Position numbers and translations under genes: made by a program
DNA from: an uncultured delta proteobacterium
Lineage (GTDB): Bacteria; Myxococcota_A; Polyangia; Polyangiales; B10-G4
Assembly: GCA_963727445.1 (NCBI GenBank)
Contig: CAVSGI010000008.1
Location: 480,001 to 544,000 of the forward strand
Length of the DNA: 64,000 nt
Reading direction: 5' to 3'
Notes under the pieces: generated by a model
Database searches by the model: none
What the model saw: only the letters and a program-made list of their open reading frames with translations
Told to the model about the DNA's origin: nothing
Part shown: positions 533 to 36,157 of the stretch, in pieces
Numbering within the stretch: the first letter of the stretch is position 1
Layout of the letters: each line of letters starts with the position of its first letter

Positions 533-1633
533 GGGACGGAGGAGCGTGGTGGTGGGCGCGGGCGGCGAGAGCCGCTGGCGTCGGTGATCGGGGAGGCCAG
601 CGTCGTGGGCCGCGGCCGCTGCGCGGCCTCTGTCCGGCGCGGGGCGCCGGACGCGAAGTGCGCGCCGTGGGATCGCACTGCGCGTCTCGGCGCATCGCGG
701 TCACAACTGCCGGCGTTACATACGACACCCCGAGTTGTGACCGCATCGCGGTCACAACCGCCGGCGTTACCCACGACGCCACGAGTTGTGTGACCGCATC
801 GCGGTCACAACCGCCGGCGTTACACACGACGCCACGAGTTGTGACCGCATCGCGGTCACAACCGCCGGCGTTACATACGACACCCCGAGTTGTGACCGCA
901 TCGCGGTCACAACCGCCGGCGTTGCCCACGACGCCACGAGTTGTGACCGCATCGCGGTCACAACTGCCGGCGTTACACACGACGCCACGAGTTGTGACCG
1001 CATCGCGGTCACAACCGCCGGCGTTACATACGACACCCCGAGTTGTGACCGCATCGCGGCCACAACTGCCGGCGTTGCCCACGACGCCCCGAGTTGTGAC
1101 CGCATCGCGGTCACAACTGCCGGCGTTACACACGACGCCACGAGTTGTGACCGCATCGCGGTCACAACTGCCGGCGTTACCCACGACACCCCGAGTTGTG
1201 ACCGCATCGCGGTCACAACCGCCGGCGTTACCCACGACACCCCGAGTTGTGACCGCATCGCGGTCACAACCGCCGGCGTTACCCACGACACCCCGAGTTG
1301 TGACCGCATCGCGGTCACAACTGCCGGCGTTACCGACATCGCCCCTCCGTCGCGGTCCGCCTTCAGGGTGCGACTCACCCTTCACATGATCATCTCGCCC
1401 ATCACGCGTCCGGCGCTCCGCGCCGGACAGAGGCCGCGCAGCGGCCGCGGCCAACTGCGTTGCCATCCGCGATCGCCGCCGCCAACGGCTCTCAGCGTCG
1501 CCACTCGCCGACCACCTCCCCCCGTCCCACGCCCGCACACACCCAGCCGCGCGCACGCCGCCCGCCGCCCCGCACACCGGCCACCCCCTTCCCCATCAGC
1601 AACAGCCGGTCAGAACCACGCCGTCCAACGCCC
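427..1633. repeat. Long imperfect inverted repeat (arms ~427-656 and ~1405-1633) enclosing the 51-bp array
   Basis: 608-656 is the reverse complement of CGCGTCCGGCGCTCCGCGCCGGACAGAGGCCGCGCAGCGGCCGCGGCC at 1405-1452 (one mismatch); ~1540-1633 is the reverse complement of the last 126-bp unit. Confidence 0.9.
691..1333. repeat. 51-bp tandem array, 13 units, each with palindrome GTTGTGACCGC-ATC-GCGGTCACAAC plus a near-constant 26-bp linker
   Basis: CGCATCGCGG at 691, 742, 795, 846, 897, 948, 999, 1050, 1101, 1152, 1203, 1254, 1305; 11-bp stem with a 3-nt loop (first unit lacks the left arm). Confidence 0.97.
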
Positions 1634-1745
1634 AGGGCAGCCGAGTCGCCTCCCAGCGCCCGCACACCGGTCAGAACCACGCCGTCCAACGCCCAGGGCA
1701 GCCGAACCGTCCCCACGACACGCAGCCCAACGCCCTGGGCAGCGG
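1606..1745. repeat. 61-bp direct repeat (2 copies plus a partial) derived from the reverse complement of part of the 126-bp unit
   Basis: CCGGTCAGAACCACGCCGTCCAACGCCCAGGGCAGCCGA at 1606 and 1667; partial CAACGCCCTGGGCAGC at ~1728. Confidence 0.85.
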
Positions 1746-1753
1746 CCCCCGCT

Positions 1754-2986
1754 CTACCTCAGCCCGTGCTTCTTCGCGAGGCGCGCCAGGTAGTTCCGAT
1801 CGAGCCCGGCTTCGGCGCTGGCGCGGGAGACGTTGCCGTCGTGGCGGTCGAGGAGGCGGGCGACGTACTCGCGCTCGAAGGCGTCGACGAGCTTTTCCTT
1901 GGCCTCCTTGAAAGGGATGCCGGAGAGGTCTTCGCCGACGGCGGCCGCCTGGCTGGCCGTGGGAGGGGGCGGCGGCTGGGAGGGCGTGCCCTCGGCGGCG
2001 AAGCTCTGCTCGAGGTGACGCACCAGCTCGCGCACGTTGCCCGGGAAGTCGTGAGCGCGCAGCGGCGCGAGCTCCTCGAGGGTGAGGTTGAAGTCGGCGT
2101 GACCGAGGCTCTGCGCGATCTCGCGGATGAGGCGCGGCAGGTCGTCCTTGCGATCGCGTAGCGGCGGGATCACCAGACGCACGGAAGCGACGTGATAGTA
2201 GAGGTCGCGGGGCGCGGCGCCCGCTTCGACCCTTTCGCGCATGTCCGAGCGGCTGGTGGCGAGCACCCGCACGTCGAGCTCGCCCCGCTCCCGCGCTTCG
2301 AGCACCTGCACCAGCTCGCTCGCCACCGGCGCGCTCACCTGATCGATGCGGTCGACGACCACGGTGCCGCCGGCGGCAGCGCGGAAGGTGTCGGCGACGC
2401 CTCCTTCGGGGATGGAAGCGCCCGCATCGAGGACGGCGAAGGGCGCCTCCCGGCGCGAGGACGCATCGTGGATGGCCCGGGCCACCTCGCTCTTGCCGAC
2501 GCCCGGCTCGCCCTCGAGGAGCACGGGCACCTCGCTGGCCGAGACCCGCTCGAGGACGCCGAAGAGCCGGCGCATCAGCGGCGTCGCACCCACCAGGGCC
2601 CCGAAGCGCGTGGACTCGCTCGGAACGTCCGGCGCCGGGACGTCGGCGGGCAGGACCTCGATCCGCGTCCGGCCCACCTTGAACTCGGCGGCTGGCGTGA
2701 GCACCAGCGACTCGATGCGGCTCGAGCCGAAGAACGTCCCGTTGGTGCTCTTGAGGTCGCGCACCCGCACGCCCTCCGACAAGAGCGCGACCTCGGCGTG
2801 GTACCGCGAGACCGCCTTGTCGCTGAGGGTGAGGTCCGCCTCGTGGTGAGAACCGATGGTCATCGTACCGCTCTCGAGGACCTTCTCTTTGCCCCGATCG
2901 TCACCGCTCACCACGCGCACCAGCACGCGCCGCACGACGAGCGCGCCGGTCGCGTCGGTGGCGAGAGTTCCCACGAGGCCCGTCAT
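1754..2986 (-). CDS. FHA + degenerate sigma54-activator-type AAA+ + Fis HTH transcriptional regulator
   Basis: FHA motifs (IGS...VSRYHAE...RDLKSTNGTF), Walker A GEPGVGKS, IPPLRDR, FPGNVREL, C-terminal GNVSRASAEAGLDRNYL HTH. Confidence 0.9.
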   Translation of the reverse strand: MTGLVGTLATDATGALVVRRVLVRVVSGDDRGKEKVLESGTMTIGSHHEADLTLSDKAVSRYHAEVALLSEGVRVRDLKSTNGTFFGSSRIESLVLTPAAEFKVGRTRIEVLPADVPAPDVPSESTRFGALVGATPLMRRLFGVLERVSASEVPVLLEGEPGVGKSEVARAIHDASSRREAPFAVLDAGASIPEGGVADTFRAAAGGTVVVDRIDQVSAPVASELVQVLEARERGELDVRVLATSRSDMRERVEAGAAPRDLYYHVASVRLVIPPLRDRKDDLPRLIREIAQSLGHADFNLTLEELAPLRAHDFPGNVRELVRHLEQSFAAEGTPSQPPPPPTASQAAAVGEDLSGIPFKEAKEKLVDAFEREYVARLLDRHDGNVSRASAEAGLDRNYLARLAKKHGLR

Positions 2987-3086
2987 CGTGTGTTGGTCGG
3001 ACACGGCGGGCCTAGCATACCCACTTTTGGGTCTCAGTGAGGGTCTAGAAAAACGATCCGCATCCGGGTGAGCGGTTCGCTCCAGA

Positions 3087-3773
3087 CTAGACGAGCTCCA
3101 GAATCGAGCGGACGGCATCCGGATCGCTGAGCTCGTCGTAGACCGCAGTGGGACCGTGCGCGCGGAGCTCCTCCGCCGTCCAGCCCCCGGTCGCGACGGC
3201 GACGCACTCGGCGCCCATCTCCGCGGCCGCCGCGATGTCGCGCGGCGTGTCGCCGATGACCACCACGCGACACGCGTCCAGCGGGACGCCGAGGAGCTCG
3301 GCGCCCCGTTCGGCGCCGCGGGTCAATAGCGCGGTGCGGTTCTCCGCGTCGGAGCCGAAGCCGCCGAAGCCGAAGCGGGCGGAGAGCTCGGCGCGGCCGA
3401 GCTTGATGCGCGCGCCCGGCTCGACGTTTCCGGTCCCGAGCCCGACGGCGACCTCGTCGTGACCGATCACCGCATCGAGCACCTCGTAGACCCCCGGCAG
3501 CACGCGATAGTCGGGCGCCGCCTCGACCTCGGTGGGCAGGATCGACAGGTAGGTCTCGAAGACGGACTGAACCACAGCCTCGTCGAAGGCCCGGCCCACG
3601 CGCTCGAGGCCGGCCCGAACGATCCCCGGATCGGTCATCCCACCGAAGCGAAAATCCGCGAAGACATCGGCGTGGCCCGTCACCTCGCGAAAGGCGCGCT
3701 CCATCGAACGACGGCCGGCGCCGCCCGTCAGGATCAGCGTGCCGTCGACGTCGAAGAGCAGGATGGTGGGCAT
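3087..3773 (-). CDS. HAD-superfamily hydrolase (phosphoglycolate phosphatase-like)
   Basis: Motif I LLFDVDGTL, motif II GTGN, motif IV VIGDTPRD. Confidence 0.92.
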   Translation of the reverse strand: MPTILLFDVDGTLILTGGAGRRSMERAFREVTGHADVFADFRFGGMTDPGIVRAGLERVGRAFDEAVVQSVFETYLSILPTEVEAAPDYRVLPGVYEVLDAVIGHDEVAVGLGTGNVEPGARIKLGRAELSARFGFGGFGSDAENRTALLTRGAERGAELLGVPLDACRVVVIGDTPRDIAAAAEMGAECVAVATGGWTAEELRAHGPTAVYDELSDPDAVRSILELV

Positions 3774-3804
3774 CGGTGGCTCTGCGCGAAAGGCGTGGCG
3801 CCGC

Positions 3805-4656
3805 TCAGTGACCGCCGAGCGCGTCGATGCGCTCCTGCGCGCGTGCCGCGGCGGCGGCGTCGCGAGAACGTACCGCTTCGATGTACTGCCGGTAGACCCG
3901 CACCGCCTCGTCGGCGTGGCTCTCCGTCTCCAGACAGACGCCGAGATCGTAGAGCGCATCCGCGTTGCCGGGACGCAGCTCGAGCGCGCGGCGATAGTGC
4001 GGGATCGCCTCTTCGCAGCGCTCCGCGCTCCTCAGGCTGATGGCGAGGTTGAGGTGCATCTCCCAGTCGGTGTCGTGATGCTCGATCGCCTCGCCGAGCA
4101 TGATGATCGACTCTTCGTAGCGGCGCTCCTGGTTCATCGCCACCGCCAGGTTGTTGATCAAACCGGTATCGCCCGGGTTGCGACGCAGCCCTTCGCGATA
4201 GGCCTGCATGGCCTCGTCGTTGCGCCTGAGGCGGCGGTACGCGATGCCGAGGTTCCCCCAGCTCGACGCGTCCGACGGGTCGAGCTCCACCGCGTGCCTC
4301 AGCGGCGCGATCGCGGCTTCGTACTGACGAAGACGGATGTGCATCGCCCCCTTCATCGCCCAACCGGCGGCGTAGTCGGGCTCGAGGCGAGTCACCGCGT
4401 TGAAGCACCCCAGAGCCGGCCGAAGCCGGCCGAGGCGACGGTAGAGCCCCCCCGCCGTGAAGTGCGCGGCCGCATGGCTGGGGCGCGCGCGAATGGCGGC
4501 CTGCGCCTCGGCCAGCGCCTCCTCGAAGCGTCCCTCGCGCTTGTAGACGAGGGCCTGACGGTAGTGCACTTCCGCCTCGTCTGCCCGGGCCACGGGCGCG
4601 CTCGACAGGAGCGCGGCGAGCACCGCCAGGATGGAGATGGTGCGAATCGAGGTCAC
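3805..4656 (-). CDS. Secreted tetratricopeptide repeat protein
   Basis: Signal peptide ending ARA-D; repeated TPR units (WGNLGIAY, NNLAVA, LNLAISL, YDLGVCL). Confidence 0.9.
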   Translation of the reverse strand: MTSIRTISILAVLAALLSSAPVARADEAEVHYRQALVYKREGRFEEALAEAQAAIRARPSHAAAHFTAGGLYRRLGRLRPALGCFNAVTRLEPDYAAGWAMKGAMHIRLRQYEAAIAPLRHAVELDPSDASSWGNLGIAYRRLRRNDEAMQAYREGLRRNPGDTGLINNLAVAMNQERRYEESIIMLGEAIEHHDTDWEMHLNLAISLRSAERCEEAIPHYRRALELRPGNADALYDLGVCLETESHADEAVRVYRQYIEAVRSRDAAAAARAQERIDALGGH

Positions 4657-4687
4657 GGGACGCCTCCTTCAGAGTGCCCAGAGGCTA

Positions 4688-5437
4688 TCACGAAGCCTGA
4701 TGCGTCGGGCGCATCAGCAGATCGTGATACTGGACGTGGGGCGGCGCGCTGAGCACGTGGCGGATCGCGTCGGCGACGTCGCCCGCCTCGAGGACCTTGA
4801 AGCGCCCATAGGTCTTCGCCGCCGCCTCCTTGCTCTTGTGGTAGTGCTCGGCGAATTCGGTCTCGACGAAGCCGGGGCTGATGGCGGTCACGCGAACCCC
4901 GCTCCCGAGCTCGCGCAGCTCCGCGCGCAGCCCCTCGGTGAGGCTTCGCACGGCGTACTTCGTCGCCGAATAGACGCCGCTGCCCGGTGGGACGCGATGC
5001 GCGGCCATCGACGAGACGTGGATCACGTGGCCGTCGTCGCCGCGCGCCCGCATCTGGCGCACCGCTTCTCGGGTCGCCACGCAGAGGGCCAGTACGTTGA
5101 CCTCGAGCATCTCCCGCCAGTCTTCGGTCTCACCCTCGGTGAGCGGCGCCGCGTGCCCGAGACCCGCGTTGTTCACGAGGACGTCGACGCCGCCCCAGCG
5201 TCCGGCCACCGCTTCGAAGAGGCGCACGATCGCGTCGGTGTTGCGGAGGTCGACCGCGTGGGCCTCCATCTCGAGGCCCGCCAGCTCCGCTTCGTGGCAG
5301 AGCGCCTCGAGGCGCTCCCCGCGTCGTGCGCAGACCGCGACCTTCATCCCTTCGGCCGCGAGCAGCTTCGCCGTCTCCCTGCCGATCCCGCTCGAGGCGC
5401 CGGTGATCAGCGCCACTCTACCCTTCCACCGCTTCAT
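4688..5437 (-). CDS. Classical short-chain dehydrogenase/reductase (DHRS11/YdfG-like)
   Basis: [13 protein letters not shown], catalytic YSATK. Confidence 0.95.
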
Positions 5438-5458
5438 GGCCGCGCAGGGTAGCAGGGC

Positions 5459-6989
5459 TCACTCCCCCGGGGGCACCACCTTCGGCGCCGCCCGACCGCG
5501 CGCGATCTCCCCGGTCGCCTGATACTCCTTTCCGAGCGCCCGCTGCACCGCGGTGGCGCTCCGCCAAGCGAGGTAACCCATGTTGAAGGGGATCGCGTAC
5601 TTGGGGTCGAGGATCGGATTCTTCAAGTGTCCATGCTGTACCAGCACAATCACCTGCTCGACCACGCTGGTCGGGCAGCCCGTGAAGCGCACGTAGGCGG
5701 AGTCCTCGGAGACCTGCAGCTTTCGCGTCACCGTCGCGAGCTTGACGAACACGTCCTGGTGCTTGGCGCTGTGAGGATCGGTCTCGCTCCGATCGCGATA
5801 CTCGCTCTTCACGTGCACCTGATGACCGAAGAGCTCGCCCTTCCACGTCGCGCAGTCGCCGATGAAGACGACCCGCTCCCCCGGCTGCGCGTCGATGGGG
5901 CCGTCGTAGGCGCCGAAGATGATGTGAGTGCGCGGCATCTTCTCCTCGCACCGCGCGTCGAAGCGCCGGAGGATTTCCACGGCTTCTTCGAGGGCGCCGG
6001 GGCACCCGCCCCAGCAGTAGTCGTACTGCAGGTCGTCCTTCGGCCGATCGTTCGGCGGGGGGCCGGCGTACGCGCAGATGTTCGTGCCCTCGAAGTACTT
6101 CTCGACGCGGATCAACCCCACCCGGAAGCCCCGGCCGCGCTCCCGCGCCTCGTCGAAGCTCACGTCCCCGCTGATCTCGATGTGGTCGAGATCGACCGGC
6201 CCGAAATCCGCGCTCGTGGGCCAGGCGGATGTGCGGGACCTCCATGGGGTCGACGCCGATGATCCGACAGCAGACCGCGTCGAAGGCGACCTGATTGTTG
6301 CCCATGATCACCATGTGCAGGGGGAACGGGATCGGCGTCAGCATCCGGCCCTCGCCCGCGACGATGGCGTCGATGCAGATGAACTGTGGCTGCACGATGT
6401 ACTGGAGGTCGGCGATCTTCTGGTCGAGACGATGATCGTGATCGATGAGGCGGTGACGGTCGTCCTGGATCCCGATGTAGTTCTTCATCGAGAAGGTGAC
6501 CGTCGTCCACGGATGCGCCTTGAGCTTCGGGCAGTTCACGAAGAAGTCCGCGCGCGCGACGGGCTCCGGCGTGTAGATGTAGTCGCGCAGGCGCCCCTCG
6601 TGGGAGAGCGGGATCTCGACCTGCGTCTCCTCCTCGAAACAGTAGCGGCGAACGCCGAGCCGCTCGAGCATCGGATCGTAGCCGGCCTCCGCAAAGGCCA
6701 CGCGCGTCGGAACGGTGATGCCGCAGCGCTCGCCCACGGCGAGCTCCCTGGTCCTGCCCTTCCCCTTCTTCTGCAGCGCGCGCAGCACGCCCTCGACGAG
6801 CTCGGGCCGGGTGTAGGCGTCCTGGAAGAGCTCGCCTGCCGCCACCACGTTCGGTTTGACGAGCGTGCGACCGGAGGGTGTGAGCTCCAGATGTTCGAGC
6901 CCGTCATGAACGATCTCGGTGATTCGGTCCGCGTCGTAGGTGTCGCAGTGTCGAAGGACGACCTTGGCGTTCTGAGTCGGATGCTGCAT
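5459..6989 (-). CDS. DUF362-domain protein with Cys-containing C-terminal extension (one frameshift near 6205)
   Basis: LVKPN, T-R-P, VGE, NCPKLKAH, TFSMKNYIG, IDAIVAGEG; continues in ORF 5459..6163 (CWGGCPG, GCP). Confidence 0.85.
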
Positions 6990-7036
6990 CTGGTTTCGAT
7001 GATGCGCGGAGGACCGGCGGGAGTCGAGGACCGGGC

Positions 7037-9928
<2,892 letters not shown>

Positions 9929-10046
9929 TCGGAGGCCTCCGTGCACGCTCGCACGCGCGGCACAGCCTGACCCATCGCGCGGACGAAGAACGCTCGACTT
10001 GTTCGTGGTGAACGTCTGGCACGACGTTCGCAGCATACAGAACGTC

Positions 10047-10883
10047 GTGAGGATCCGTCTCGGGCTCGTCGCGGTCTTATGTGTGGCGGGGTGCTCGCCG
10101 GCGCTCGGGACGCTTCAACCTGCGCGGACGACGCCCGAGGGCCATCTGCAGGTCACCGGCTCGGTGGACTACGTGCACACCGACGGTGAGATCCGCGAGG
10201 CGATCGGCGTGGTGGAAGGCGCACACTTCGGTGGACGCATGACCCGCGCCGAGGTGACCGAGATCACGGACGCCGCCACGGTGGCGCTCGTTCAGCCGCC
10301 GAGCGTCGGCGCGACGATGGCCGCCTCCTACGGCATCACCAAGCGCTTCGAGCTCGGGGTGCGAACCTCGGGGAGCGCCGTGCGCGGACACGTCCGCTTT
10401 CAGTGGCTTCGGATCGCCCCAGGGATCTATGGCTCCGCGGGCTTCGGCGTCTCGGGCTACCTCTTCGGCTTTCCCCTTCAAACCGTGAGCGACGACGCGG
10501 TGAAGGTGAACGGCTTCACGCGGTGGGACTTCGACCTGCCGATCCATCTCGGCTACTCCGGCCGCTACTTCCACGTGTGGGGCGGGCCCAAGTTGATCTT
10601 CTCGACCTACGATTCGAGCCTCACCGTATGCACCGACACCCGGGGACCCGGTTGCAACGCCTCGGCCGGAGTGAAGGTGGGCGGCACGGCGGCCTACGTG
10701 ACGGGTCAGCTGGGCTTCGCGGTCGGCTACCGGCGCTTCTGGGTGGCCGCCGAGCTCACGGTGGGGCGGGTCGGCGCCAGCGGCAACGTCGGGATCACTT
10801 CTGGCAGCCGTTCGGACCATGGCACCTTCGCCCACGAAGGGCTGGTGCTGAGCCCATCGGTGGGCTTCATCAGCTGGTTCTGA
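10047..10883 (+). CDS. Lipobox-bearing putative outer-membrane beta-barrel protein
   Basis: GTG start, h-region ending VAGC, alternating beta-strand pattern, C-terminal GFISWF. Confidence 0.7.
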   Translation: MRIRLGLVAVLCVAGCSPALGTLQPARTTPEGHLQVTGSVDYVHTDGEIREAIGVVEGAHFGGRMTRAEVTEITDAATVALVQPPSVGATMAASYGITKRFELGVRTSGSAVRGHVRFQWLRIAPGIYGSAGFGVSGYLFGFPLQTVSDDAVKVNGFTRWDFDLPIHLGYSGRYFHVWGGPKLIFSTYDSSLTVCTDTRGPGCNASAGVKVGGTAAYVTGQLGFAVGYRRFWVAAELTVGRVGASGNVGITSGSRSDHGTFAHEGLVLSPSVGFISWF

Positions 10884-11030
10884 GGAGGAAGAGCAGGACC
10901 CCGACGAGGGCGCCCGCGACCGCCGCGGCCGCCAGCGTGTAGAGGAGCAAGCGTCGCGCTCTCGGGGGTGTTGCGACCGGGGGGCGCGGATCGACCACGG
11001 TCGGCGCGGCCTCCTGGATCCGCTCCTCAT
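10870..11030 (-). CDS. Putative small single-TM protein (~52 aa; start apparently displaced by an indel)
   Basis: Frame reads EERIQEAAPTVVDPRPPVATPPRARRLLLYTLAAAAVAGALVGVLLFLLRTS*; an ATG overlaps the kinase stop but is one base out of frame. Confidence 0.4.
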
Positions 11031-13095: not shown

Positions 13096-13190
13096 CGGCT
13101 GGAAGGGTTCATAACCCGCGGGCGGTGCGACGTCACCGGTGCCCCCCGAGATCGTGATCATCGCGCGCTGACGCGGACCCCAGCCGAACC

Positions 13191-14307: not shown

Positions 14308-14324
14308 GGTGTATAGCCGCGGAC

Positions 14325-15041: not shown

Positions 15042-15051
15042 AGGAACGACG

Positions 15052-22093: not shown

Positions 22094-22105
22094 GCGCTGC
22101 GGAGC

Positions 22106-23897: not shown

Positions 23898-23972
23898 GGC
23901 CCGAAGGGTAGCAAAGCGCGTCCTGACCCACGAGGACCAGCCCGCGCCCCGTGTGTAGTAGACTCCGCCGCG

Positions 23973-24855
23973 ATGCGCGCGATCCTCGCGATGGCTCTGT
24001 TGTCGCTCTCGGCCCTGATGTGCGGGCGGGCCGTGGCCCAGGAGTCGGAGGCGGATTCGGAGGCAGCGGCCGATTCGGAGGCGGAGGCCGAGTCGGAGGC
24101 GGAAGCGGAGACGGGCACGGAAGCGGGCACGGAAGCGGGAACGGGAACGGGAACGGGAACGGAAGCGGGAACGGGAACGGGAACGGGAACGGGAGCGGGA
24201 ACGGGAGCGGGAACGGGCACAGACACGGGAACGGGAACGGGAACGGGAACGGGAACGGGAGCGGGAACGGGGCCCGAGGACCAACCCGAGGGGTCATCGT
24301 CCGCGCCTGCGCCGCCCGAGCTCGCCCCTGGAGACTTCGCCCTTCCTCGTCTCTCTCGCCTTCTTCACCGGCGTCGCCCAGGAGAACGACTTCGACGCGG
24401 CCCTGTCGAATCTCGGGTACTCGCGCAGTCAGTGGTTCTGGGGGCTCGACCTGAGCGCGGAGACGCGCATCAGCCGGCTCTTCTGGATCGGAGCGCGCGG
24501 AGATCTTCGGATGCGTCAGTGGGGCTTTCGGGGAGGCACCTCGGCCGATGCGCTCGGCGCGTCGCTCCTCGCCCTCGCCGACTTCCGCATCCCGCTGAAC
24601 AGCGTCCTCGACGTGGCCGCCATCGCGGGCGCCGGCTTCGGGATGGCGGTGGTGACGCTGCGCGGCGTCTCACAGGTCGCAGGGCTTCCGCGCCTGAGCA
24701 TCGGTCTGCAGTTCGGCGTGACGCTCTTCTCCGGCCTGCGAGTGCACATGGGCGCGACCTTCGACTACGCCGAGTCGCTGGCCCTGAACGACTTCGGAGA
24801 CAGCGTCTCCTTCAGCATCGCCGCCTTCCGCTTCGGCTTCGAGGGACGACTGTGA
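23973..24855 (+). CDS. Exported protein with acidic and Gly-Thr repeat linker and C-terminal beta-barrel-like domain (frameshift near 24350)
   Basis: Signal peptide ending AVA-Q, ESEA and GT repeats, C-terminal amphipathic strands ending FRFGFEGRL. Confidence 0.65.
24111..24271 (+). repeat. Coding hexanucleotide repeat (GGAACG)n encoding a Gly-Thr/Ala linker
   Basis: Long runs of GGAACG/GGAGCG in frame with the exported protein. Confidence 0.9.
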
Positions 24856-25481: not shown

Positions 25482-25535
25482 CGGGCAAGTGACTTGCGCC
25501 CACTGGCGGGCGAAACTAGATTGCGCCGCCCCGCC

Positions 25536-26462
25536 ATGCAGCCGGAGCCCGAAATCACCACTGACGACCTCGCACGCGAGGCGCTCGCGTGGGCGACCGA
25601 CGTCGCCTGCGTAGACCCACGTCTGCTCGACGACCCCCACCCGGTGCCGCCGATCGAGTCCCTGAGGGCGCTGCCCATCGAGGTGGTTCGCGATCACATG
25701 GACCGGATCCTGGTTTCGAAGAACGCGGAGGAAGGCCTCGACGCCCTTCATCACATCCGCCTCCTCGACGCGTGGATCCCGGAGGTCGCGGCCATGGTCG
25801 GCTTCGGCGACGGCGAGTGGCGGCACAAGGACGTCTGGAAGCACACCAAGCAGGTGGTGCGCCAGGCCGTGCCGCGCCTCGCCATTCGTTGGGGCGCGCT
25901 CCTGCACGACATCGGCAAGCCCAAGACCCGCAAGATCACGGACAGCGGCGAAGTGACCTTCTACGGCCACGCCGAGGTCGGCGCGTCGATGTTCCGCCGC
26001 CGGGTAGGCAAGCGCCTCGGCTTCGATGGCGAGCTCTTCGACCGCGTCCACTTCCTCATCCTCTATCACCTGCGCGCGAGCCAGTACGATGGCCAGTGGA
26101 CCGACTCCGCGGTGCGCCGCTTCGCGCGCGAGATGGGCGAGGGCCTCGACGATCTGCTCGCGCTCAGTCGCGCCGACATCACCACCAAGCGCCCGGCCCG
26201 CAAGAAGCGAGGGTTGCGCCAGATCAGCGCGCTCGCCGAGCGTATCCGCAAGCTCCAGAAGGAGGATGCGCGGGTGCCGCCGCTCCCCAAGGGACTCGGC
26301 AACGAGATCATGAACGCCTTCGGCGTGCCTCCGTCGCGCCGCCTCGGTGACATCATGAAGGAGCTCGAGCGGCGCTGCGAAGACGGTGACCTCGAATGCG
26401 GTCGGGATGCCGAGTTCTACATCGCGTACCTGCGCGAGCGCGCCGGCGACTTCGAGCTCTGA
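25536..26462 (+). CDS. Stand-alone HD (HDIG) phosphohydrolase resembling the C-terminal half of CCA-adding enzymes
   Basis: IPEV..M, HKDVWKHT, ALLHDIGKPKT, FYGHAEVGA, HLR, WTDSAVRR, RADIT, GNEIM. Confidence 0.88.
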   Translation: MQPEPEITTDDLAREALAWATDVACVDPRLLDDPHPVPPIESLRALPIEVVRDHMDRILVSKNAEEGLDALHHIRLLDAWIPEVAAMVGFGDGEWRHKDVWKHTKQVVRQAVPRLAIRWGALLHDIGKPKTRKITDSGEVTFYGHAEVGASMFRRRVGKRLGFDGELFDRVHFLILYHLRASQYDGQWTDSAVRRFAREMGEGLDDLLALSRADITTKRPARKKRGLRQISALAERIRKLQKEDARVPPLPKGLGNEIMNAFGVPPSRRLGDIMKELERRCEDGDLECGRDAEFYIAYLRERAGDFEL

Positions 26463-26463
26463 G

Positions 26464-27385
26464 GTGGAGCCAATCTGGCGAGCGGAGCGGGCGGTCGACG
26501 AGCGCCTGGCGCGCGCGCTCGTCCGTCGTGTCGCACCGGCGCTGGCCGACGCTCCCTTCGAGCGCTTCGGCGAGGGCTACGACAACGTCGCCTATCTCGT
26601 CGCCCGCGAGTGGGTCTTCCGCTTTCCGCAGCGCGAGATGGCGGGCGGGCTCATGGCGGTGGAGTCCCGGGTCCTTCCGGCCATCGCTCGCCGCCTTCCC
26701 CTCGCCATCCCACTGCCCGAGTGGGTGGGTGCCGCGACCGACCTCCATCCGTGGCCCTACGCCGGTTATCGCCTCCTCTTGGGCACCACCGTCGACCGCG
26801 CCGCGCTGGACGACGAGGGTCGCGCCGCCCTCGCCGAGCCCCTCGGCCTCTTTCTCCGTGCCCTGCACGACACGCCGGCGGAGGCGATAAAAGCCGCCGA
26901 CGTGCCACCGGATCTCTTCGGTCGGATGGACGTCCCGCGGCGCCTCGAGATGACGCGCACGCGGCTCGCGGAGGCCGAGGCGCGCGGCTGCGATCCGCGC
27001 CGACGACTACGCCCCCATCCTCGACGTCGTGGACGAGGGCTTCGCGGTGCGGACAGATGTCCTCTGTCACGGCGACCTCTACGACCGCCACCTCCTGGTC
27101 TCTTCGGATGGCACGCTCAGCGGTGTGATCGACTGGGGCGACGTCCACCGCGGCGATCCTGGCGTCGACCTCGCGGTCGCCCACCGCGTCCTTCCGGCGT
27201 CGGCCCACGACGCGTTCCGCGCGGCCTACGGCCCGATCGACGACGCGCGATGGAACGTCGCGCGCGCCCGCGCCCTCTACCACGCGGCATCGACCCTCTT
27301 CTACGCGCGCGACGTGGGCGATGCGCCTCTCGAACGCGGATGCCTCACGAGCCTTTGCTATCTGAAAGCGGCGGGCGTCAGTTGA
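26464..27385 (+). CDS. Aminoglycoside phosphotransferase (APH)-family kinase (frameshift near 27000)
   Basis: GEGYDN, WVFRFP, FLRALH, then CHGDL, GVIDWGD, GDPGVDLA. Confidence 0.88.
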
Positions 27386-28172
27386 AGGTGAGCGTCGCCG
27401 CGAGCCCCACGCCGTAGAGCGTGTAGTCGTTCGCGAAGCCGAGCACCGAATGGGCCGCGATGCCGAGCCCCCATCGGCGGCCGAGCATCCACTCCTTGCC
27501 GACCGTCAGGTGCAGGCCGAAGCCCGCCGGATCGGTGAGCAGGGCCGTGTCGCCGACGGCGACCTGCATCGCGAGAAAGCTCGCCGAGAGCGACGCGTGG
27601 AGGTTGAGCGGCATCAGGTAATACGCGATGCCGCCGCCGAACATCACCATGGTGAGACCGACGGTGTCGCCGGGCGCCGGAAGGATCGGGCCGTCGTAGT
27701 CCGCCGAGTCGACAATCTGAAAAGTGAACTCGCCGAAGAGGATGAAGTTCTTCGCGATGGCTGCACCGATCTTGATGCCGGCGCCTACCGCCAGGCCCCG
27801 GGCCTGGGTGCCCTGGCCGCTCACGCCCAAGAAACCGAAGCCCACGTGCGGGCGGAGGAAGAAGCCACGGTGCTCCTTCTCCTCCTCCGGCGCGGGTGGT
27901 TCGCCCACCGGGACCACGTCGTCCGTCGCCGCCGCCCCTCCAGCGCTGGCGGTCGCGTCGTATCCCACCGCCGGCTGGCCCGGATAGGCGGGATAGGTCG
28001 ACTGCTCGGGCGGCGGGGGCGGCGGGCCAATCGGCGCATCGGGTGGCGGCGGGGGCGGGCCCTCCGGCGGTGGGGCGTCACCCTCGCCTTCCGGCGCCTC
28101 CTGCGCGCGCGCGACCGGCGTCGCGACCGACAGGAGCGCGGCGAAAAGCAGCGCCGGCCACCCGTGCGTCAT
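27378..28172 (-). CDS. Outer-membrane beta-barrel protein with Pro-rich N-terminal linker
   Basis: Signal peptide ARA-Q, poly-Pro, HRGFFLR..VG.G, VGKEW, terminal ATLTFN. Confidence 0.8.
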   Translation of the reverse strand: MTHGWPALLFAALLSVATPVARAQEAPEGEGDAPPPEGPPPPPPDAPIGPPPPPPEQSTYPAYPGQPAVGYDATASAGGAAATDDVVPVGEPPAPEEEKEHRGFFLRPHVGFGFLGVSGQGTQARGLAVGAGIKIGAAIAKNFILFGEFTFQIVDSADYDGPILPAPGDTVGLTMVMFGGGIAYYLMPLNLHASLSASFLAMQVAVGDTALLTDPAGFGLHLTVGKEWMLGRRWGLGIAAHSVLGFANDYTLYGVGLAATLTFN

Positions 28173-28195
28173 GGATCCGTTGTATCACGCGTCGC

Positions 28196-28789
28196 TCAGA
28201 TGCGGAGGACGAGGGATGCTCGGTAGCCCACGTTGAGGGTCTCTAGTTCGTTACGCAGGCCGTAGCTCTCTTGAAGAATCCGCGCGTACTCGACGCCCGC
28301 TTCGAGGGAGATCCCGACCACGTCGTCGACCATGTAGGTCGCTCCGGCCAGAACACCGCCGCCATAGGCCACGGTTGCGTCGAAGTTCCCGAGGCTCGCG
28401 CGCGCATATCTGCCGACGAGGCGGATCGTCGGCGAAACTCTGCCGCGCGCCGCCGGGAGGATCCACACCTTGAGATCGACAGGGATGGCCAGGCCGACGG
28501 AGTCGAACGAGCCCGCGACGCCTGGCCCGCCGAGGCCACCGAGACCGCCCGTGCCGCCGAGGCCACCGAGACCGCCAAACGACGTGGACGACGAGAACGA
28601 CGCCGAAACCCCGGCGCCAATCGTGATGCGGTCGCTGAGGACAATCCCGAACCGAAACCCCGGACCGACGCTCGCCCCGCTGCCGACGAAGGCGCCCTCG
28701 AGCTCGAGGACTTTGTTGGTTTGGGCCTCGGCGGGAGCCGAGACGTAGGTGAGCGCCGCAATCACGGCGCACTGCACGAGTCGCTTCAT
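28196..28789 (-). CDS. Small outer-membrane beta-barrel protein
   Basis: AAAGGAGG RBS, signal peptide AEA-Q, ~8 amphipathic strands, duplicated GGLGGLGG loop. Confidence 0.75.
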   Translation of the reverse strand: MKRLVQCAVIAALTYVSAPAEAQTNKVLELEGAFVGSGASVGPGFRFGIVLSDRITIGAGVSASFSSSTSFGGLGGLGGTGGLGGLGGPGVAGSFDSVGLAIPVDLKVWILPAARGRVSPTIRLVGRYARASLGNFDATVAYGGGVLAGATYMVDDVVGISLEAGVEYARILQESYGLRNELETLNVGYRASLVLRI

Positions 28790-28965
28790 TCGCACCTCCT
28801 TTGCGCGCGTTCCATCGCAAGTCGGATGCCAAGGAGCTTCTGCCCGGAAACGCCGGATCGACGGTCTTCCGGCGTCGCTTTCGCGTCTCTTCGTCAGCTA
28901 CGAGAGCTCGACTTCGCCGATTCGACAACGCGCAATCGCGGGCTCGTGCGTGTTAGCCTCGACCG

Positions 28966-30566
28966 ATGCAGACCGCGTCGAAGATCGGGCTCCTCGTGCT
29001 CGGTGTTCTGTGGGGATGCGACTCTGGGCCGGGCACCCTCATCGTCGAGCTTCGAACGGACTATCGGCCGGGGGTGGACTTCGGCGCCGTGAGCACCGAG
29101 CTGATCGGTTTTCGAGACCCTCTCTCCGACACGGTCACCACCGCCGACGATTTCTCCATGCAGCGCCGGGTCGCCGAGCTCCCCGATGTGCCGGGCGGCA
29201 CCTACGATCTGCGCCTGAGCCTGCTCTCGGGGCTCGATGGCGACGTCGTCGCCGGCCGCACCCGATCGGTCACCGTGGACGGCCCGACCGCCGTGGTCAT
29301 CGAGATCCTCTCCGGGATGGATGGGGGCGTGGACGGGTGTACGCCGTCCGGGGCCGAGATCTGCAACGGCGTGGACGACGACTGTGACGCGCTCGTGGAC
29401 GAAGGCGCGGACATGGACGGAGACGGCTTCACCTGGTGCGGTGGTGGGATGATCAGCGAGGTCGACTGCGACGACGCGGATCCCAACGCTCACCCGGGCA
29501 ACGTGCTCATCGCTTCGGCGACCGAGGTGTGCGACGGAACGGACAACGACTGCGACGAGAGCGTGGACGAGGACGACGGCTCCGGCACGCTGTGCACCCC
29601 GGGACTCATCTGCATCGATCGGGTGTGTGCAGACGCCAACGACTGCTCGCTTCCGTCGGTGAGCTGCCCAATGGGAGAGTCGTGCGACTTCACCATGACC
29701 CCGCCCCGCTGTGTCCCGGGAGGGTGTACGCCGAGCAGCTGCACCACGCCGGAGGTGTGCAACTCGCTGAGCGGCGTGTGCGGCGTTCCGGGCACCCTCG
29801 GAGAGTCGTGCTTCACCGACGAGGACTGCGCCGGCGGTGCGATCTGCGTGCAAAACTCCGTCCTCGGCGTGTCGACGGGGGTGAGCTCTTGCGCGACCGC
29901 TTGCTGCCGCGACTCGGATTGTCCGATGGGAACGATCTGTTGGGCGTCCATCACCGGCGTCAGCTTCTGCACGGACCCTGCGCTCGTCGACGCGTCGGCC
30001 GGGAGCAGGCCGGGGTCGTCGTGCGCTGACGATTCCGAGTGCGCATCGGGCCGATGCTTCGAAAGCACGTGTCACCGGCCTTGCGGCAACGACGGTGACT
30101 GCGGAGGGGGGAGAGCTGTGTCGTTCAGACGAGCGGCGCCACCGATCTGCTGGGGTGTGGCGCGCCCGGGGGCTCCGTCACTCAGGGCGATGCGGACCTC
30201 GCGGGAGACGGTTGCGCGAGCCGCATGTCCAACGGAACGGCGTGCGCCGGTTTCGACTGTGGGCCTATCTGCATCGGCGCGTGTAAGACCAGCGTCGACT
30301 GTCCCAGCTCGATCGTCGATCTGGACTACTACTGCGGCTTCAGCACCCCTGCCGGCTACGAAACGCCCCTGCGGATGTGCATCCCCAAGCGACACATGGG
30401 TTCGGGCGAGGATGGTGCGAGCTGCAGTGCGAACGGCGACTGCCACGACCTGGCATGCATCAGTGGAGCATGTGCCGACACCTGCTGCTCGAACGCGGAC
30501 TGCCGGCCAGGCGAACACTGCCGTCCCGTGTACATCCGCGGCCAGTGGGAGACCCACTGCCTTTGA
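28966..30566 (+). CDS. Cys-rich lipoprotein with MopE-like metal-binding repeats (frameshifts near 30110-30220)
   Basis: Lipobox LWGC; EICNGVDDDCD..VDE, DGDGF, DCDD, EVCDGTDNDCD; many disulfide-type repeats continuing in ORF 30225..30566. Confidence 0.85.
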
Positions 30567-30572
30567 AGCGCT

Positions 30573-31286
30573 TCAGACGAACCAGAAGGTGAAGCCGAAG
30601 CCGGCGAAGACGTCGCCGCCGATGCCGATGGAGAAGGTGTTCGCTCCGTTGTCGTCGCCGAAAGCGATGCGCGCGCCAGCCTGTCCGTGGATGGAGAAGA
30701 ACTCGGTGGGAAAGATCTCGGCGAAGATGCCGCCGCCGATGCCGAGGTCCCAACGCGTCGCGTCCGGGGTCATGGGGCCGAATGTCTGGTTCTGGATCTG
30801 GAAGTCGATGCTGCCTACCAGGGCGAGGTGACCGCCTTCGAACTCGAAGACGGTGAAGATCCCCGACAGCCCCGTGCCGAAGCCGACGGCGGTGTTTTGA
30901 AGCGCAGCCACGTTGAAGCGGAGCGCGAGCTGCAGGCCGATGGTGTCGGTGGCCTGATAGCGCATCTGCAGCCCCACGAGCCCGCTGAGGAGCCCGTCCG
31001 CGCCCACACCCAGGGTGCCGGCGTCCTGGGCCCCCTGCACCGTGCCCGTCGGGCGGTTGGGGCCGGGATCGAGCTGAACCGTCGTGTCGCCACCCGCCAG
31101 CGACGTCGAGCTGGAGCCGGACGCGGAGCCCGTTCCTTCCATCTCGGCGTCGGCGTTCACGTCGACTTCGCCCGACGTGCCGAGGCCGGTGCTGGTGTCG
31201 TCGCTCTGCGCCGAGGCCAGCGCAGGCGCCCAGAAGAGAAGCGATGCGCCGACGACGGCGCGCAGAAGCGTGGAGTTCTTCATCAT
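30573..31286 (-). CDS. Outer-membrane beta-barrel protein (paralog 2)
   Basis: Signal peptide ASA-Q, amphipathic strands, C-terminal FGFTFWFV. Confidence 0.82.
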   Translation of the reverse strand: MMKNSTLLRAVVGASLLFWAPALASAQSDDTSTGLGTSGEVDVNADAEMEGTGSASGSSSTSLAGGDTTVQLDPGPNRPTGTVQGAQDAGTLGVGADGLLSGLVGLQMRYQATDTIGLQLALRFNVAALQNTAVGFGTGLSGIFTVFEFEGGHLALVGSIDFQIQNQTFGPMTPDATRWDLGIGGGIFAEIFPTEFFSIHGQAGARIAFGDDNGANTFSIGIGGDVFAGFGFTFWFV

Positions 31287-31294
31287 GCGCTCCA

Positions 31295-31892
31295 TCAGCT
31301 GAACCACACGGTGAAGCCGGCCTGACCCCAGAGGCCCGCGCCGAGGTCGAGCGCGAAGCCGTCACCGGTCACGACGAAGTCGAAGGCGCCTCCGTTGCCA
31401 GCCGGGATTCTGACTCTGGACGAACCCGAGGCGAACCCCCGCGCTCGCGAAGAAGGAGAAGTTCTTCATCGCGAACCACTCGCCCATCACGCCGAGCGCG
31501 GCCAGAACGCCGACGTCCTCCGGAGAAGGCGGCGCCATCGGTCCAGGGGCGCCGTTGTTCAGTCTCCGGTAGAGGAAGTCCGCCCCGAAGAGCAGGGAGA
31601 TGTGCCCCACGTCGAAGGGCGCGACCTTCAGCATCCCGTAGATACCAGCGTCGAGACCGAAGGTGTTCGCGTTACCGGCCGTCGCGTAGCCGAGGCCGAA
31701 GGTGCCCATGATCCCGAAGTAGTCCGAAAAGTACGTCCGGAAGTGCAGGCCCGCCGAACCGCCGAGGTTCACGTTGGCCCCGATGCCGATCGCCCCGTTC
31801 TTGTCGGCCCAATCCCCCTGCTGCGCCGACGCCACAGACGGCGTCACCGCGAGGAGAACCAAGCCCAGAAGGGCACTCTTGGTAGTGGTCAC
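31295..31892 (-). CDS. Outer-membrane beta-barrel protein (paralog 1; frameshift near 31400)
   Basis: Signal peptide ASA-Q; corrected C-terminus GQAGFTVWFS*; motifs align with the downstream gene. Confidence 0.8.
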
Positions 31893-31955
31893 GCGTGTAT
31901 GATGCTTGCCTACATCAGCCCACACAAAAAAGCGGCAGCGATTTCGGCCCGCACC

Positions 31956-31993
31956 AAAACGAAGAGCCGGCCCGAAGGCCGGCTCTTTCTCTT
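31956..31993 (-). terminator. Intrinsic terminator downstream of ftsZ (possibly bidirectional)
   Basis: Minus strand AAGAGCCGGCC-TTCG-GGCCGGCTCTT-CGTTTT: 11-bp stem with c(UUCG)g loop. Confidence 0.85.
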
Positions 31994-32018
31994 CAGTACA
32001 GCTGGTTTCTTCGTGCCG

Positions 32019-33259
32019 TTACCCGTCTTGCGACGCGTTTCGGCGTAGATAGGCGGGGATGTCGAGGACGGCCTCGTCGTGCAGGGCCGTGGCGCCGAAG
32101 GCCCGGCTGTGTCGGCCCTCCGCCGAGGCGTGAACCTCGTGGCTCGGCGAGGAGTGGCGGCGGCTCTGCCCGAGGGCGATGGCCTCGCGGGTGGTCTGAC
32201 CCGAGGAGCCTCCGTAGCTCATGCGGGTCCCCATCGGGACCGTGGTGCGGGCCTGTCGGGGCTGGACGTCCACCACCGTGGGCTCGCTCTCGTCGAAGCC
32301 GGTCGCGATGACCGTGACCTTGACCGTCGTCGCTCATGTCCGGGTCGGTGACGACGCCGAAGATGATGTTGGCCTCCTCGTGGGCGGCCTGCTGGATGAG
32401 GCTCGCCGCCTCGTTGATCTCCTTGAGCCGGATGTCGGGGCCCGCGGTGAAGTTGATGAGGACCCCACCCGCGCCGTCGACGCTGACGTCGTCGAGGAGC
32501 GGCGAGTTGATGGCCATCTCCGCGGCTTCGATGGCGCGGCGGTCGCCCTTGGCCGCAGCCGGTGCCCATCAGCGCGCGACCGCTGGTGCTCATGATGGTC
32601 TTCACGTCGGCGAAGTCGACGTTGATCATGCCGGCGTTGACGATGAGGTCGCTGATGCCGCGCACCGCCTGAACCAGCACGTCGTCGGCACGCTGGAAGG
32701 CCTCGAGGAGGCTACAGGTCCTCGTCCTCGAGGTTGCAGAGCTTCTGGTTCGGGATGGTGATGATGGTGTCGACCGACGCCGATGAGCTCGTCGATGCCG
32801 TTGGTCGGCGTTCTTGCTGCGCTTGCGGCCTTCGAAGAGGAAGGGTTGGTCACGACGCCGACCGTGAGCGCGCCGTGATCACGCGCGATCTGCGCGATGA
32901 TCGGCGCCGCGCCGGTGCCCGGTGCCGCCGCCCATGCCGGCGGTCACGAAGACCATGTCGGCGCCCGCGAGCTGCGTCGGCGATGCGCTGCACGTCCTCG
33001 AGCGCCGCCTTGCGGCCGACGTCGGGGTTGCCGCCCGCGCCGAGCCCCTTGGTCAGCTGCGGGCCGAGCTGGATCTTGGTCGGCGCGAGGCTCGTATCGA
33101 GCGCCTGCGCGTCCGTGTTGGCGGCGATGAACTCGACGCCCTCGAGGCCGCTCGGCGATCATGGTGTTGAGCGCGTTGCCGCCGCCGCCGCCCACGCCGA
33201 CGACCTTGATCCGCGCGTGCAGCTCCGCGTCGTCCGCGAACTCGATCGAGATTGCCCAT
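32019..33259 (-). CDS. ftsZ: Cell division GTPase FtsZ (multiple indels)
   Basis: [42 protein letters not shown]-terminal LDIPAYLRR. Confidence 0.95.
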
Positions 33260-33367
33260 TTCTGCTTCCTCCCAGCTGGAGGCTCCCGCTCCCCGTCCGA
33301 CATCGCCTCTGTCGCCGCTCGGGTTCGCCCACCCGTGGTCGGAGTCGTCATTTGCATCAGCCCTGGC

Positions 33368-34611
<1,244 letters not shown>

Positions 34612-34732
34612 TTCGTCGCTTCTCCCGAGGCTCTTGTTCTGCCTTTTCGAGCCATACAGGTCCCCGTTCGAGGTGGCCAAAAAACTGCAAAACTCCAACC
34701 GGATAGGTGGGTTCAGGTGCGATAGTTCCGAG

Positions 34733-35221
34733 GTGGCTCTGATCGCCTGCCCGGAGTGCGAAGGAAAGGTCTCGGACCGCGCCGCGGCGTGTCCCCACTG
34801 CGGATTTCCCTTGCGAGAGGCGCGCATGCACGCGGGCGTGGGCGACGAGGAGAGAGTGCTTCGCGAGGTCTCGCCGGCGCTCTACGGCCGCAACCCCTTC
34901 ATCCACCTCGGCGTCATCGTGCTCTCACTCGTGTTGGTGGGATTGTTCATGTACCTCTACGAGTGGCTGCGCTGCCGCGCGACGCGCTTGATCGTCACCA
35001 CCGAGCGCACGACGCTGCGCACCGGTATCGTCAGCCGGCAGACGAACGAGGTCAGACACTCGGACCTGCGCAACGTGCAGGTGAGACAGACGGCGTTCGA
35101 GCGCATGGTCGGCGTCGGCGAGGTCGAGCTGTCGAGCGCAGGGCAGAGCAACGTGGAGATCGCCGTGGGCGGATTGCCGGATCCGGCGGGGATCGCGGAG
35201 TTGATCCGGCAGTATCGCTAG
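34733..35221 (+). CDS. Zinc-ribbon + TM + bacterial PH-domain protein
   Basis: CPEC...CPHCG, TM segment, VTTERT.LRTGIVSRQT.E, VRQTAFERMVGVGEV. Confidence 0.85.
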   Translation: MALIACPECEGKVSDRAAACPHCGFPLREARMHAGVGDEERVLREVSPALYGRNPFIHLGVIVLSLVLVGLFMYLYEWLRCRATRLIVTTERTTLRTGIVSRQTNEVRHSDLRNVQVRQTAFERMVGVGEVELSSAGQSNVEIAVGGLPDPAGIAELIRQYR

Positions 35222-35571
35222 CGCGCCGACGCGAACGCGGATTCAGGGCGGACGCGCCGCGGATGGGGAACGCGGAGGCCGTGGAAGGCGCGAACGCGGA
35301 TGGGGACGCGGGCGCGGGCGCGGAGGCGCACGCGGATCTTGGCTTCGGGGGGAAGGTGGGGGCGCGTGTGCGAGCGGAGGATGACGTGTGAGCCGGGGCA
35401 ATGAAGCGGGCGTGGGTCGGAGCGGCCGAGAGGGATGCGTGGATGCGGTGGGAGCCGCCCATCGCGTTTCGATCGTCGCGTGAGGTCTCGGGCCGCGGCC
35501 GCTTCGCGGCCTCTGTGGCGGCGCTTCGCGCCTGTGTGGGCGCTCGCGCGCCCGCGATCGTTGGTGAGGCG

Positions 35572-36157
35572 GGCCGAAGTCGCGGACATCGCGCGTTGGG
35601 TCCGAGAGCGGTTCGCAGGCACGGACCGAAGTCGGGGGCATCGCCCGTTGGGTCCGAGAGCGGTGCGCAGGCACGGACCGAAGTCGGGGGCATCGCGCGT
35701 TGGGTCCGAGAGCGGTGCGCATACGCGGGCCGAGGTCCGAGGCATCGCCCGTTGGGTCCGAGAGCGGTGCGTATGGGCGAACCGAAGTCGCGGGCATCGC
35801 GCGGTGGGTCGGAGAGCCGTCCGCCTGCGCGGACCGAAGTCGAAGGCATCGTGCGGTGGCTCGGAGAGCGGTCCGCCTGCGCGGACCGAAGTCGCGGGCA
35901 TCGTGCGGTGGCTCGGAGAGCGGTTCCCCTCCGCGGGCCGAAGTCGGAGGCATCGCCCGTTGGGTGCGAGAGCGGTGCGGCGCGGGCCGAAGTCGGAGGG
36001 ATCGCGCGGTGGGTCCCAGAGCGGTTCGCCTCCGCGGGCCGACGTCCGAGGTACCGCGCGTTGGGTCCGAGAGCGGTTCGCAGGCACGAACCGAAGTCGT
36101 GGGCACCGCGCGTTGGGTCGGAGAGCCGTCCGCCTGCGCGGACCGAACTCGAAGGCG
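35572..36157. repeat. Degenerate 52-bp tandem array, ~11.3 units, each with a CGGTYCGC-N4-RCGRRCCG-type hairpin
   Basis: CCGA(A/G/C) anchors at 35574, 35626, 35678, 35730, 35782, 35834, 35886, 35938, 35987, 36039, 36091, 36143. Confidence 0.93.

Follow-up and report, generated by a model that had tools for sequence, protein, structure and literature searches.

What kind of element places two tandem arrays of different sequence behind copies of the same two-hairpin motif? The question is raised by a 64,000-nucleotide stretch, here called the window (G000:C8:480001-544000), of the genome of an uncultured delta proteobacterium of the order Polyangiales, the assembly of which (G000) comprises 9.47 Mb in 27 contigs, has about 69% GC and is 86% complete. 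The observation of two-hairpin motifs with arrays, made in an initial annotation of the window, is confirmed. Two 27-mers on one strand, at 607 and 35490, are identical at 26 of 27 positions, an inverted copy is found at 1427-1452, and Tandem Repeats Finder (TRF) returns the arrays where they had been placed, at 691-1334 (period 51, 12.6 copies, 93%) and 35569-36151 (period 52, 11.3 copies, 82%). These arrays are probably outlying copies of palindromic repeats of constant length, which are found on either side of two unannotated predicted HUH genes. With somewhat less assurance, the two loci can be read as intergenic mosaics, similar to bacterial interspersed mosaic elements (BIMEs), of two nuclease systems of the HUH (Y1) type, the genes of which lie in other parts of the genome and the enzymatic activity of which we infer. 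The annotation had seen no cognate enzyme in the window, and the candidates indeed lie on other contigs. Its suggestion of an element resembling repetitive extragenic palindromes (REPs) or BIMEs, driven by a HUH enzyme of the REP-associated tyrosine transposase (RAYT) type, is borne out as probable; the new non-coding family outside known kinds that it had proposed is not supported, REP-type mobile repeats being found instead.

All units share one design, a 48-bp imperfect palindrome with a spacer of 3 nt in type A (array 1) or 4 nt in type B (array 2). The units of the two arrays had been called unrelated and, over their full length, they are no more alike than shuffled sequences (best 22/48, p=0.5; cross-type identity 18-25/48), but they have this architecture and related arms in common. 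The array 1 unit is identical to those of the two arrays flanking the gene of a protein designated P0002 at 41 (the array upstream of the gene) and 35 of 48 positions, and the array 2 unit to those flanking the gene of P0003 at 41 and 42 of 48. The P0002 gene (265 aa, C10:250509-251306) stands between direct arrays of 12 and 17 type-A units and the P0003 gene (261 aa, C27:412259-413044) between direct arrays of 11 and 17 type-B units; the two proteins are 43% identical. It is quite probable that the array units are the cognate repeats of this protein family, type A belonging to P0002 and type B to P0003. A DUF559 endonuclease was also considered as the cognate enzyme and discarded, with no match in the genome.

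P0002 and P0003 have no meaningful match in Pfam or NCBIfam, and a genome search with PF01797 missed both. They are predicted from a structural model (pLDDT, the predicted local distance difference test, 97.4) to consist of an N-terminal HUH/tyrosine domain with the TnpA-REP fold and a C-terminal helix-turn-helix (HTH) resembling DnaA domain IV. Residues 1-152 of the model superpose on E. coli TnpA-REP (4ER8; Z 12.0, root-mean-square deviation 2.7, 131 aligned), which is also its top Foldseek match (E 7e-4), and residues 168-251 on DnaA domain IV (3PVP, Z 9.9, root-mean-square deviation 2.1, 84 aligned; 1J1V, Z 8.7). In 51 aligned proteins H47, H49, Y97, Q101, H105, D121, G124 and P140 are invariant. 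Y1_Tnp matches only 10 of these 51 members (best E 0.004) and HTH_23 matches seven at E<=0.1; Atlas neighbours at 0.89-0.92 carry Y1_Tnp or Bac_DnaA_C. With the family profile 1512 clusters are found at E<=0.001, and a threshold of E<=1e-30 leaves 449 (50% identity clusters); in the Atlas the closest clusters consist of hypothetical proteins, most often from Myxococcota. Since 3 of 51 first matches bear the Joint Genome Institute (JGI) label RayT, the broad RAYT assignment is not wholly new.

The pairing of enzyme and array recurs across this family. A genome scan gave 69 family loci from 33 assemblies, arrays being counted within 400 bp, and 30 loci of the type of P0001, a RAYT discussed below, served as controls (including L027 from an unpublished genome, G122). 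An array of period 50-54 bp adjoins the gene at 36 of the 69 loci, in 19 of the 33 assemblies, against none of the 30 controls; when periods of 44-70 are admitted, one control has an array (56 bp). Among 49 flanking arrays the period is 51 in 33 and 52 in six. The unit sequences differ among loci. The geometry recurs: the unit body measures 48 bp in 31 of 37 cases (45-50 allowed), a self-complementary axis (>=8/10 pairs) is present in 32 of 40 units compared with 155 of 800 shuffles, and a loose arm consensus, SCGGACCGAACTC, can be drawn. Direct tandem arrays, as at both genes of this genome, are also found at three of four two-sided family loci. Moreover, cognate units are dispersed over 19 other contigs in one further genome (G005) and at least six other places in another (G301). 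A promoter-like motif noticed upstream of some family genes was dismissed, occurring at 5 of 68 compared with 6 of 68 controls.

Within G000 the arrays are intergenic, and 20 of 37 lie between convergent genes, compared with 299 of 1992 background gaps; their boundaries mostly coincide with unit boundaries. Three units make up 14 of the 38 array clusters and four units none; the one cluster scored as a single unit is a doublet. Repeat collapse does not explain the three-unit arrays here, because this assembly has preserved exact internal repeats as long as 373 bp, although copy numbers of 2.8-3.0 in short-read assemblies may represent collapse. No target-site duplication is evident by eye; inverted modules are present, with degenerate and tandemly duplicated outer ends. 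A third unit type, C, of 52/53 bp, occurs at C8:77948, C9:288426, C9:695478, C10:635074 and C10:948738, and shares 69% identity with the G005 unit that adjoins a family gene. Two type-A arrays, C6:406052 and C27:290402, have long flanks in common on both sides, including a gene start, so that a larger segment was duplicated along with the arrays. A tRNA gene lies within 400 bp of 6 of the 38 clusters (C5, C6, C13, C20, C27). A short palindromic module (CTTTCCCC..GGGAAAG type) accompanies several three-unit arrays (C4:40304, C5:195984, C27:27397, C27:149068) and is also found on a metagenome contig, L068.

Among described systems, the TIRYT proteins and their TIRtrons (Di Nocera 2013, PMC3733652) correspond to TnpA-Y1 subclass 2.1 (Quentin 2018, 10.1101/279083) and to RAYT group 1 (Bertels 2017, PMC5581495). 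Like TIRYTs, P0002 and P0003 combine a HUH/Y1 core with a C-terminal DnaA_C-like HTH, have no GTAG REPs, and are flanked by repeats also dispersed as singles, dimers or clusters; the unit arms loosely resemble the GGGGWSAS consensus, and the array-enzyme profile has a weak match to the HTH encoded by a canonical TIRYT-like gene of G000 (E 2.5e-4). However, the array genes have as flanks direct tandem arrays in which a self-complementary 48-bp unit recurs at a fixed period of 51/52 bp, and not a pair of terminal inverted repeats (TIRs); GGGGWSAS is fully matched by 1 of 74 arms, most fitting 4-6 of 8 positions; neither protein has a Pfam or NCBIfam match; and both carry a YxxxQ signature with 48-50 residues from H to Y, as against a median of 58-67 (10.1101/279083). 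Because their genes lack such a pair of TIRs, the array enzymes are not filed as TIRYT members and are regarded here as a divergent TIRYT/subclass-2.1-like family. In the study that defined subclass 2.1, no REP-like sequences were found alongside these genes and a role of the HTH in target reading was doubted (Quentin 2018, 10.1101/279083). Part of the array design has precedent, since TIR repeats occur in dimers or clusters and some are self-complementary (PMC3733652), and since one of the two canonical TIRYT-like genes of G000, which have GGGGAC-type inverted repeats (L003, C9:565690-568929; L004, C10:486168-489401), has a repeat, that of L004, which also forms 49-51-bp tandems (C10:451023-451332 and C10:1524980).

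The REP/BIME system of E. coli with TnpA-REP (PMC3333891; 4ER8) offers the closest solved fold, intergenic mosaics, tandem copies that are homogeneous per locus, enrichment between convergent genes and a single cognate gene flanked by its repeats. Here, in contrast, units are longer, there is no GTAG foot, an HTH domain is added and two enzyme systems are probably combined in one mosaic. As in REP/RAYT groups 2 and 3, the cognate repeats occur both beside the nuclease gene and scattered through intergenic DNA; the GTAG foot of those groups is absent, the leader foot being CAGA and the unit consensuses showing none. TnpA-Y1 class 3 (10.1101/279083) is resembled in the YxxxQ of P0002 and P0003 and in a CnGA-type foot (CAGA) 5' of leader hairpin 1, but these two traits belong to different systems, P0002 and P0003 have no extended N-terminus and P0001 has YxxxN. 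A genome scan for a class-3-like motif gave nothing credible. A CRISPR array was rejected, as whole units repeat and there are no unique spacers (cas genes were not searched for), and likewise an integron cassette array (attC), as units abut with 3-4 nt between them (integrase was not searched for). Pneumococcal BOX elements (boxA-boxB(n)-boxC), and miniature inverted-repeat transposable elements (MITEs) with internal repeats, place two end modules around a variable number of units of about 50 bp. The internal units considered here differ in having their own candidate enzyme and in mostly lacking ends. A literature search, in which subscription journals were thinly covered, found no description of the array-enzyme family or of fixed-period arrays beside a HUH gene; none of six taxon names appears in two text supplements of PMC6006769, other parts of which (Figure 7) could describe related flanking structures.

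The two-hairpin motif, or leader, is a separate component. A profile built on 18 seed copies detects 21 in the whole genome at E<1e-4, and a descriptor that asks for a stem with a TNC loop, then CCTCTG and another stem, composed after the RAYT-flanking variant described below was known, matches the genome 21 times and three 6-nt block shuffles 0, 0 and 1 times. The annotation had correctly seen two hairpins, but the conserved hairpin 1 is an inner 6-bp stem with a 3-nt loop (614-628) and not GGCCGCG/CGCGGCC, an outer pairing that was rejected with no covarying cells. In an alignment of 22 copies, pairing is kept in 89.7% of the cells of the inner stem and the second stem of 5 bp; 21 cells show double-sided changes, Watson-Crick on both sides, and there is no G-U change; because the copies are related, these cells are not independent events. 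Read on the opposite strand, hairpin 1 has GCA, GAA or GTA loops, and GNA triloops are unusually stable in DNA. On that strand a CAGA foot is present in 20 of 20 aligned copies. The leader forms the inner double-hairpin end of a degenerate, G-rich (54% G) module of about 230 bp with recurring landmarks, the outer part of which is often tandemly duplicated, as in the 126-bp repeat at 1-532 and in 94-, 130- and 276-bp repeats elsewhere in the genome. The similarity reported upstream of the motif stands for the two same-strand copies (GAGCCG 38 nt before, GATCG 21 and 19 nt before), but GATCG is not kept in the other copies. The leader was also considered as a coding fragment and set aside, one copy having a minus-frame stop and the module plus-frame stops.

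As had been predicted, the leader goes with arrays of about 50 bp: an array lies on the inner side of 21 of 21 genomic copies, 25-269 nt away except for two members of a tandem triplication, against a background of 0.8% of the genome within 800 bp of an array. In the window the distance claimed, 55-57 nt, holds at copy 1 (57 nt) but is 52 nt at copy 2. The leader is not a required head of the array, since 25 of 38 arrays lack one, including the four that flank the cognate genes, and 13 of 38 clusters have one. Nor is it one-sided: it is an inward-pointing end, often in pairs. Convergent pairs bracket an array at six loci, and the inverted copy listed as a separate third item forms such a pair, 607(+) and 1452(-) enclosing array 1. 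Eight of nine subtype-I cores face type A and three of three subtype-IV cores face type B. As the subtypes track the array types and some flanks are common between loci, there were probably several captures, after which each composite was copied as a unit.

The leader was not found in the other genomes searched. There was no real match to window 560-1500 in 60 relatives, and a covariance model over 150 genomes of the order gave weak matches only (best 32.6 bits); 21 of 29 weak matches retrieved were inspected and were chance-like, except for a REP-like hairpin pair in G134. An exact-pattern scan of metagenome contigs yielded 48 matches, almost all chance. The one clear homologue found outside G000 is on L068 (profile E 4e-7, with common flanking landmarks), a contig that ends about 160 nt further on.

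A candidate enzyme for the leader is P0001, a predicted RAYT of 235 aa encoded on contig C9 with the signature YxxxN (PF01797, 31.2 bits, cut-off 23; NF047646, E 5e-12, 46 bits, cut-off 80). A covariance model of 20 leader copies, from which the RAYT-flanking repeats were left out, recovers the 21 leaders and exactly two further copies, at C9:168223-168285(+) and C9:169594-169656(-), with 36.8 and 38.4 bits (E about 1e-5, a rough value); the next genome match scores 23.4 bits. The P0001 gene is enclosed by inverted repeats of 155 bp, 83% identical to each other, whose inner ends are formed by these two copies; it is the only gene flanked by leaders. The balance tilts slightly towards P0001 being the enzyme to which the leader is tied. 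Another P0001-type locus, L040, has long inverted repeats of its own with landmarks similar by eye.

If two such systems are at work, the array enzyme would recognise the palindromic arms through its HTH, 51-52 bp corresponding to about five turns at 10.4 bp, and would nick single-stranded repeat DNA at or near unit junctions via its tyrosine. A short multimer, often of three units, could be moved to new intergenic sites, and units would be gained locally by nick-primed synthesis or recombination, as in models for E. coli BIME amplification (Ton-Hoang 2012, PMC3333891). Leader pairs would be non-autonomous ends of the P0001 element, recognised as single-stranded DNA hairpins; these ends may have captured, or been targeted by, arrays several times and then spread as composites. 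In its strongest form, which we consider doubtful, this scheme would describe a large, unnamed HUH-HTH family with a ruler-like address: a 48-bp palindrome at every five turns read by a DnaA-type HTH, junctions nicked by HUH, three-unit blocks moving and each enzyme having its own sequence, the blocks riding specifically in the hairpin ends of a second, RAYT, element as a nested two-enzyme mobile repeat that would also rewrite the silent sites of adjoining host genes.

Several results weigh against the two-system account. No TRF array adjoins 33 of the 69 family loci, although 17 of 65 flanks of these loci do peak at lag 51/52 as against 7 of 92 control windows. Similarity of units and of proteins is uncorrelated overall (Spearman 0.03) and tracks among close pairs only. 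For type C the assembly, which is 86% complete, contains no cognate gene. No empty array site was found, and the congener G001 is not syntenic here. The link between leader and P0001 comes from a single gene: its paralogue L001, 83% identical, has no leader, the other P0001-type loci searched score no more than 17 bits for it, and long inverted repeats surround 5 of 29 testable P0001-type loci only. Moreover, the account does not explain why all free leaders face an array.

This last fact (21 of 21) is what a single system would predict, in which the leader is the true end of an element of the array HUH enzyme and recombination between direct arrays has deleted the gene, an event that the position of the genes between direct arrays would make easy. 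However, the P0002 and P0003 genes have no leader nearby, 65 of the 69 family loci searched with the leader model gave nothing above 19.4 bits, and the only gene flanked by leaders is that of P0001, a RAYT of an unrelated subfamily, so that a single system appears unlikely. It is about equally unlikely that the arrays are double-stranded loading platforms, comparable to iterons or operators, for the HTH of a domesticated protein, growing passively by slippage, the nuclease being incidental. A period held close to five helical turns while the sequence varies, the DnaA-IV-like domain and the failure to find the family in viral contigs or plasmids with these queries are all consistent with such platforms; the invariance of the catalytic H47, H49 and Y97 is not, the lineage-specific arrays at many unrelated sites demand a mobility step, and exactly three units in 14 of 38 clusters with none of four is unlike simple slippage.

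A transcribed and processed small-RNA cassette, or a terminator array, would account for stable predicted hairpins on both strands and for placement at gene 3' ends. Against it stand near-identical units with no unique spacers, the absence of any Rfam match (none in the window at gathering score), the lack of G-U variation, one-strand GNA triloops that fit DNA hairpins, leaders facing each other over arrays and the lack of conservation in the congener; we consider it very improbable. An assembly artefact is hardly credible. None of 13 sequencing runs compared contains more than 0.10 of the words, but differences among units are patterned and the same period is found beside homologous genes in 19 independent assemblies.

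The two-system account bears on the DNA targets and the role of the HTH in the RAYT branch of subclass 2.1/group 1. The array family provides dozens of natural enzyme-repeat pairs in which the geometry stays constant while the sequence is free to vary, and among these pairs are two paralogues of a single genome whose repeats differ; target recognition, the role of the HTH and a rolling-amplification model for BIME arrays thereby become directly testable. Because the proteins are unannotated, similar orphan arrays in Myxococcota-like genomes would be mistaken for new RNAs or for loci of a CRISPR-like kind. As protein-DNA tags, orthogonal pairs of HUH enzyme and DNA might also be of use.

A skew of silent sites beside leaders is offered as a lead. 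In genes ending beside leader modules, four-fold sites are C or A (inward strand) at 0.47 against 0.58 expected over the first 60 bp and at 0.72-0.75 against 0.57-0.58 at 60-200 bp; control gaps are flat. The 95th percentile of the controls is surpassed at seven of 19 leader sides, including the two sides of locus 1, compared with 4 of 49 leaderless-array sides (Fisher p 0.008, for a statistic picked after seeing the data). The skew is strand-mirrored, with sites shifted to G nearest the module and C-rich runs of 20-29 sites further out (for example window 1754-2100 and the gene ending 169 bp to the left). Against it, the congener orthologue without the element, in the one orthologue test, is equally C-rich at 80-330 bp; only the last 80 bp differ, with five sites G here and C there and one the opposite. 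A strong C-then-G silent-site skew was also seen at L003.

Features of the two loci of the window (coordinates are window positions)
Feature	Position	Strand	Basis and remarks
126-bp tandem repeat, 5.3 copies	1..532	+	outer part of leader module, tandemly duplicated; begins 138 bp left of window; TRF and extended-module profile (outer half matches each copy)
Leader module 1, ~230 bp, G-rich, degenerate, facing array 1	428..657	+	alignment; profile E 2e-38
Leader core 1: hairpin 1 614-628 (loop 620-622, GCA on minus strand), linker TCTG, hairpin 2 633-651	607..651	+	
Array 1, type A: 12 complete units of 51 bp, each an imperfect 48-bp palindrome with a spacer of 3 nt, and partial unit	691..1334	-	TRF
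Leader module 3 (core 1427-1452), paired with module 1 in inverted orientation; outer part partially duplicated to about 1745	1402..1632	-	
Host gene, FHA + sigma-54 activator	1754..3118	-	Pfam; converges on element
Leader module 2, unpaired, facing array 2	35320..35538	+	profile E 3.5e-37
Leader core 2: hairpin 1 35497-35511 (GAA loop on minus strand), hairpin 2 35520-35532	35490..35532	+	
Array 2, type B: 11 full units (ten 52 bp, one 49) and partial unit	35569..36156	+	TRF

The covariance model finds three leader matches only in the 64-kb window. Locus 1 (1-1750) is intergenic and flanked by two convergent genes of the sigma-54-activator type, the left one, sigma-54-activator-like from its sequence and the gene calls, having its end 169 bp to the left of the window. 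The neighbours of locus 2 (35220-36350) are a zinc-ribbon/bPH_2 gene on one side and a response regulator on the other, and a 29-bp near-perfect palindrome (36252-36280) follows array 2. Hexamer repeat runs (GGAGGC, ACGGGA type) at 24041-24271 are also found in the flanks of L001 and L002 and, within the inverted repeats that enclose the P0001 gene, to either side of that gene. Elsewhere in the genome, separate hairpin-rich tandem arrays of 98-130-bp units, 97-100% identical and with GNA-type loops, occur at C2:91686, C2:186436, C6:79105, C6:317852, C21:569320, C21:587125, C27:120344 and C27:265200.

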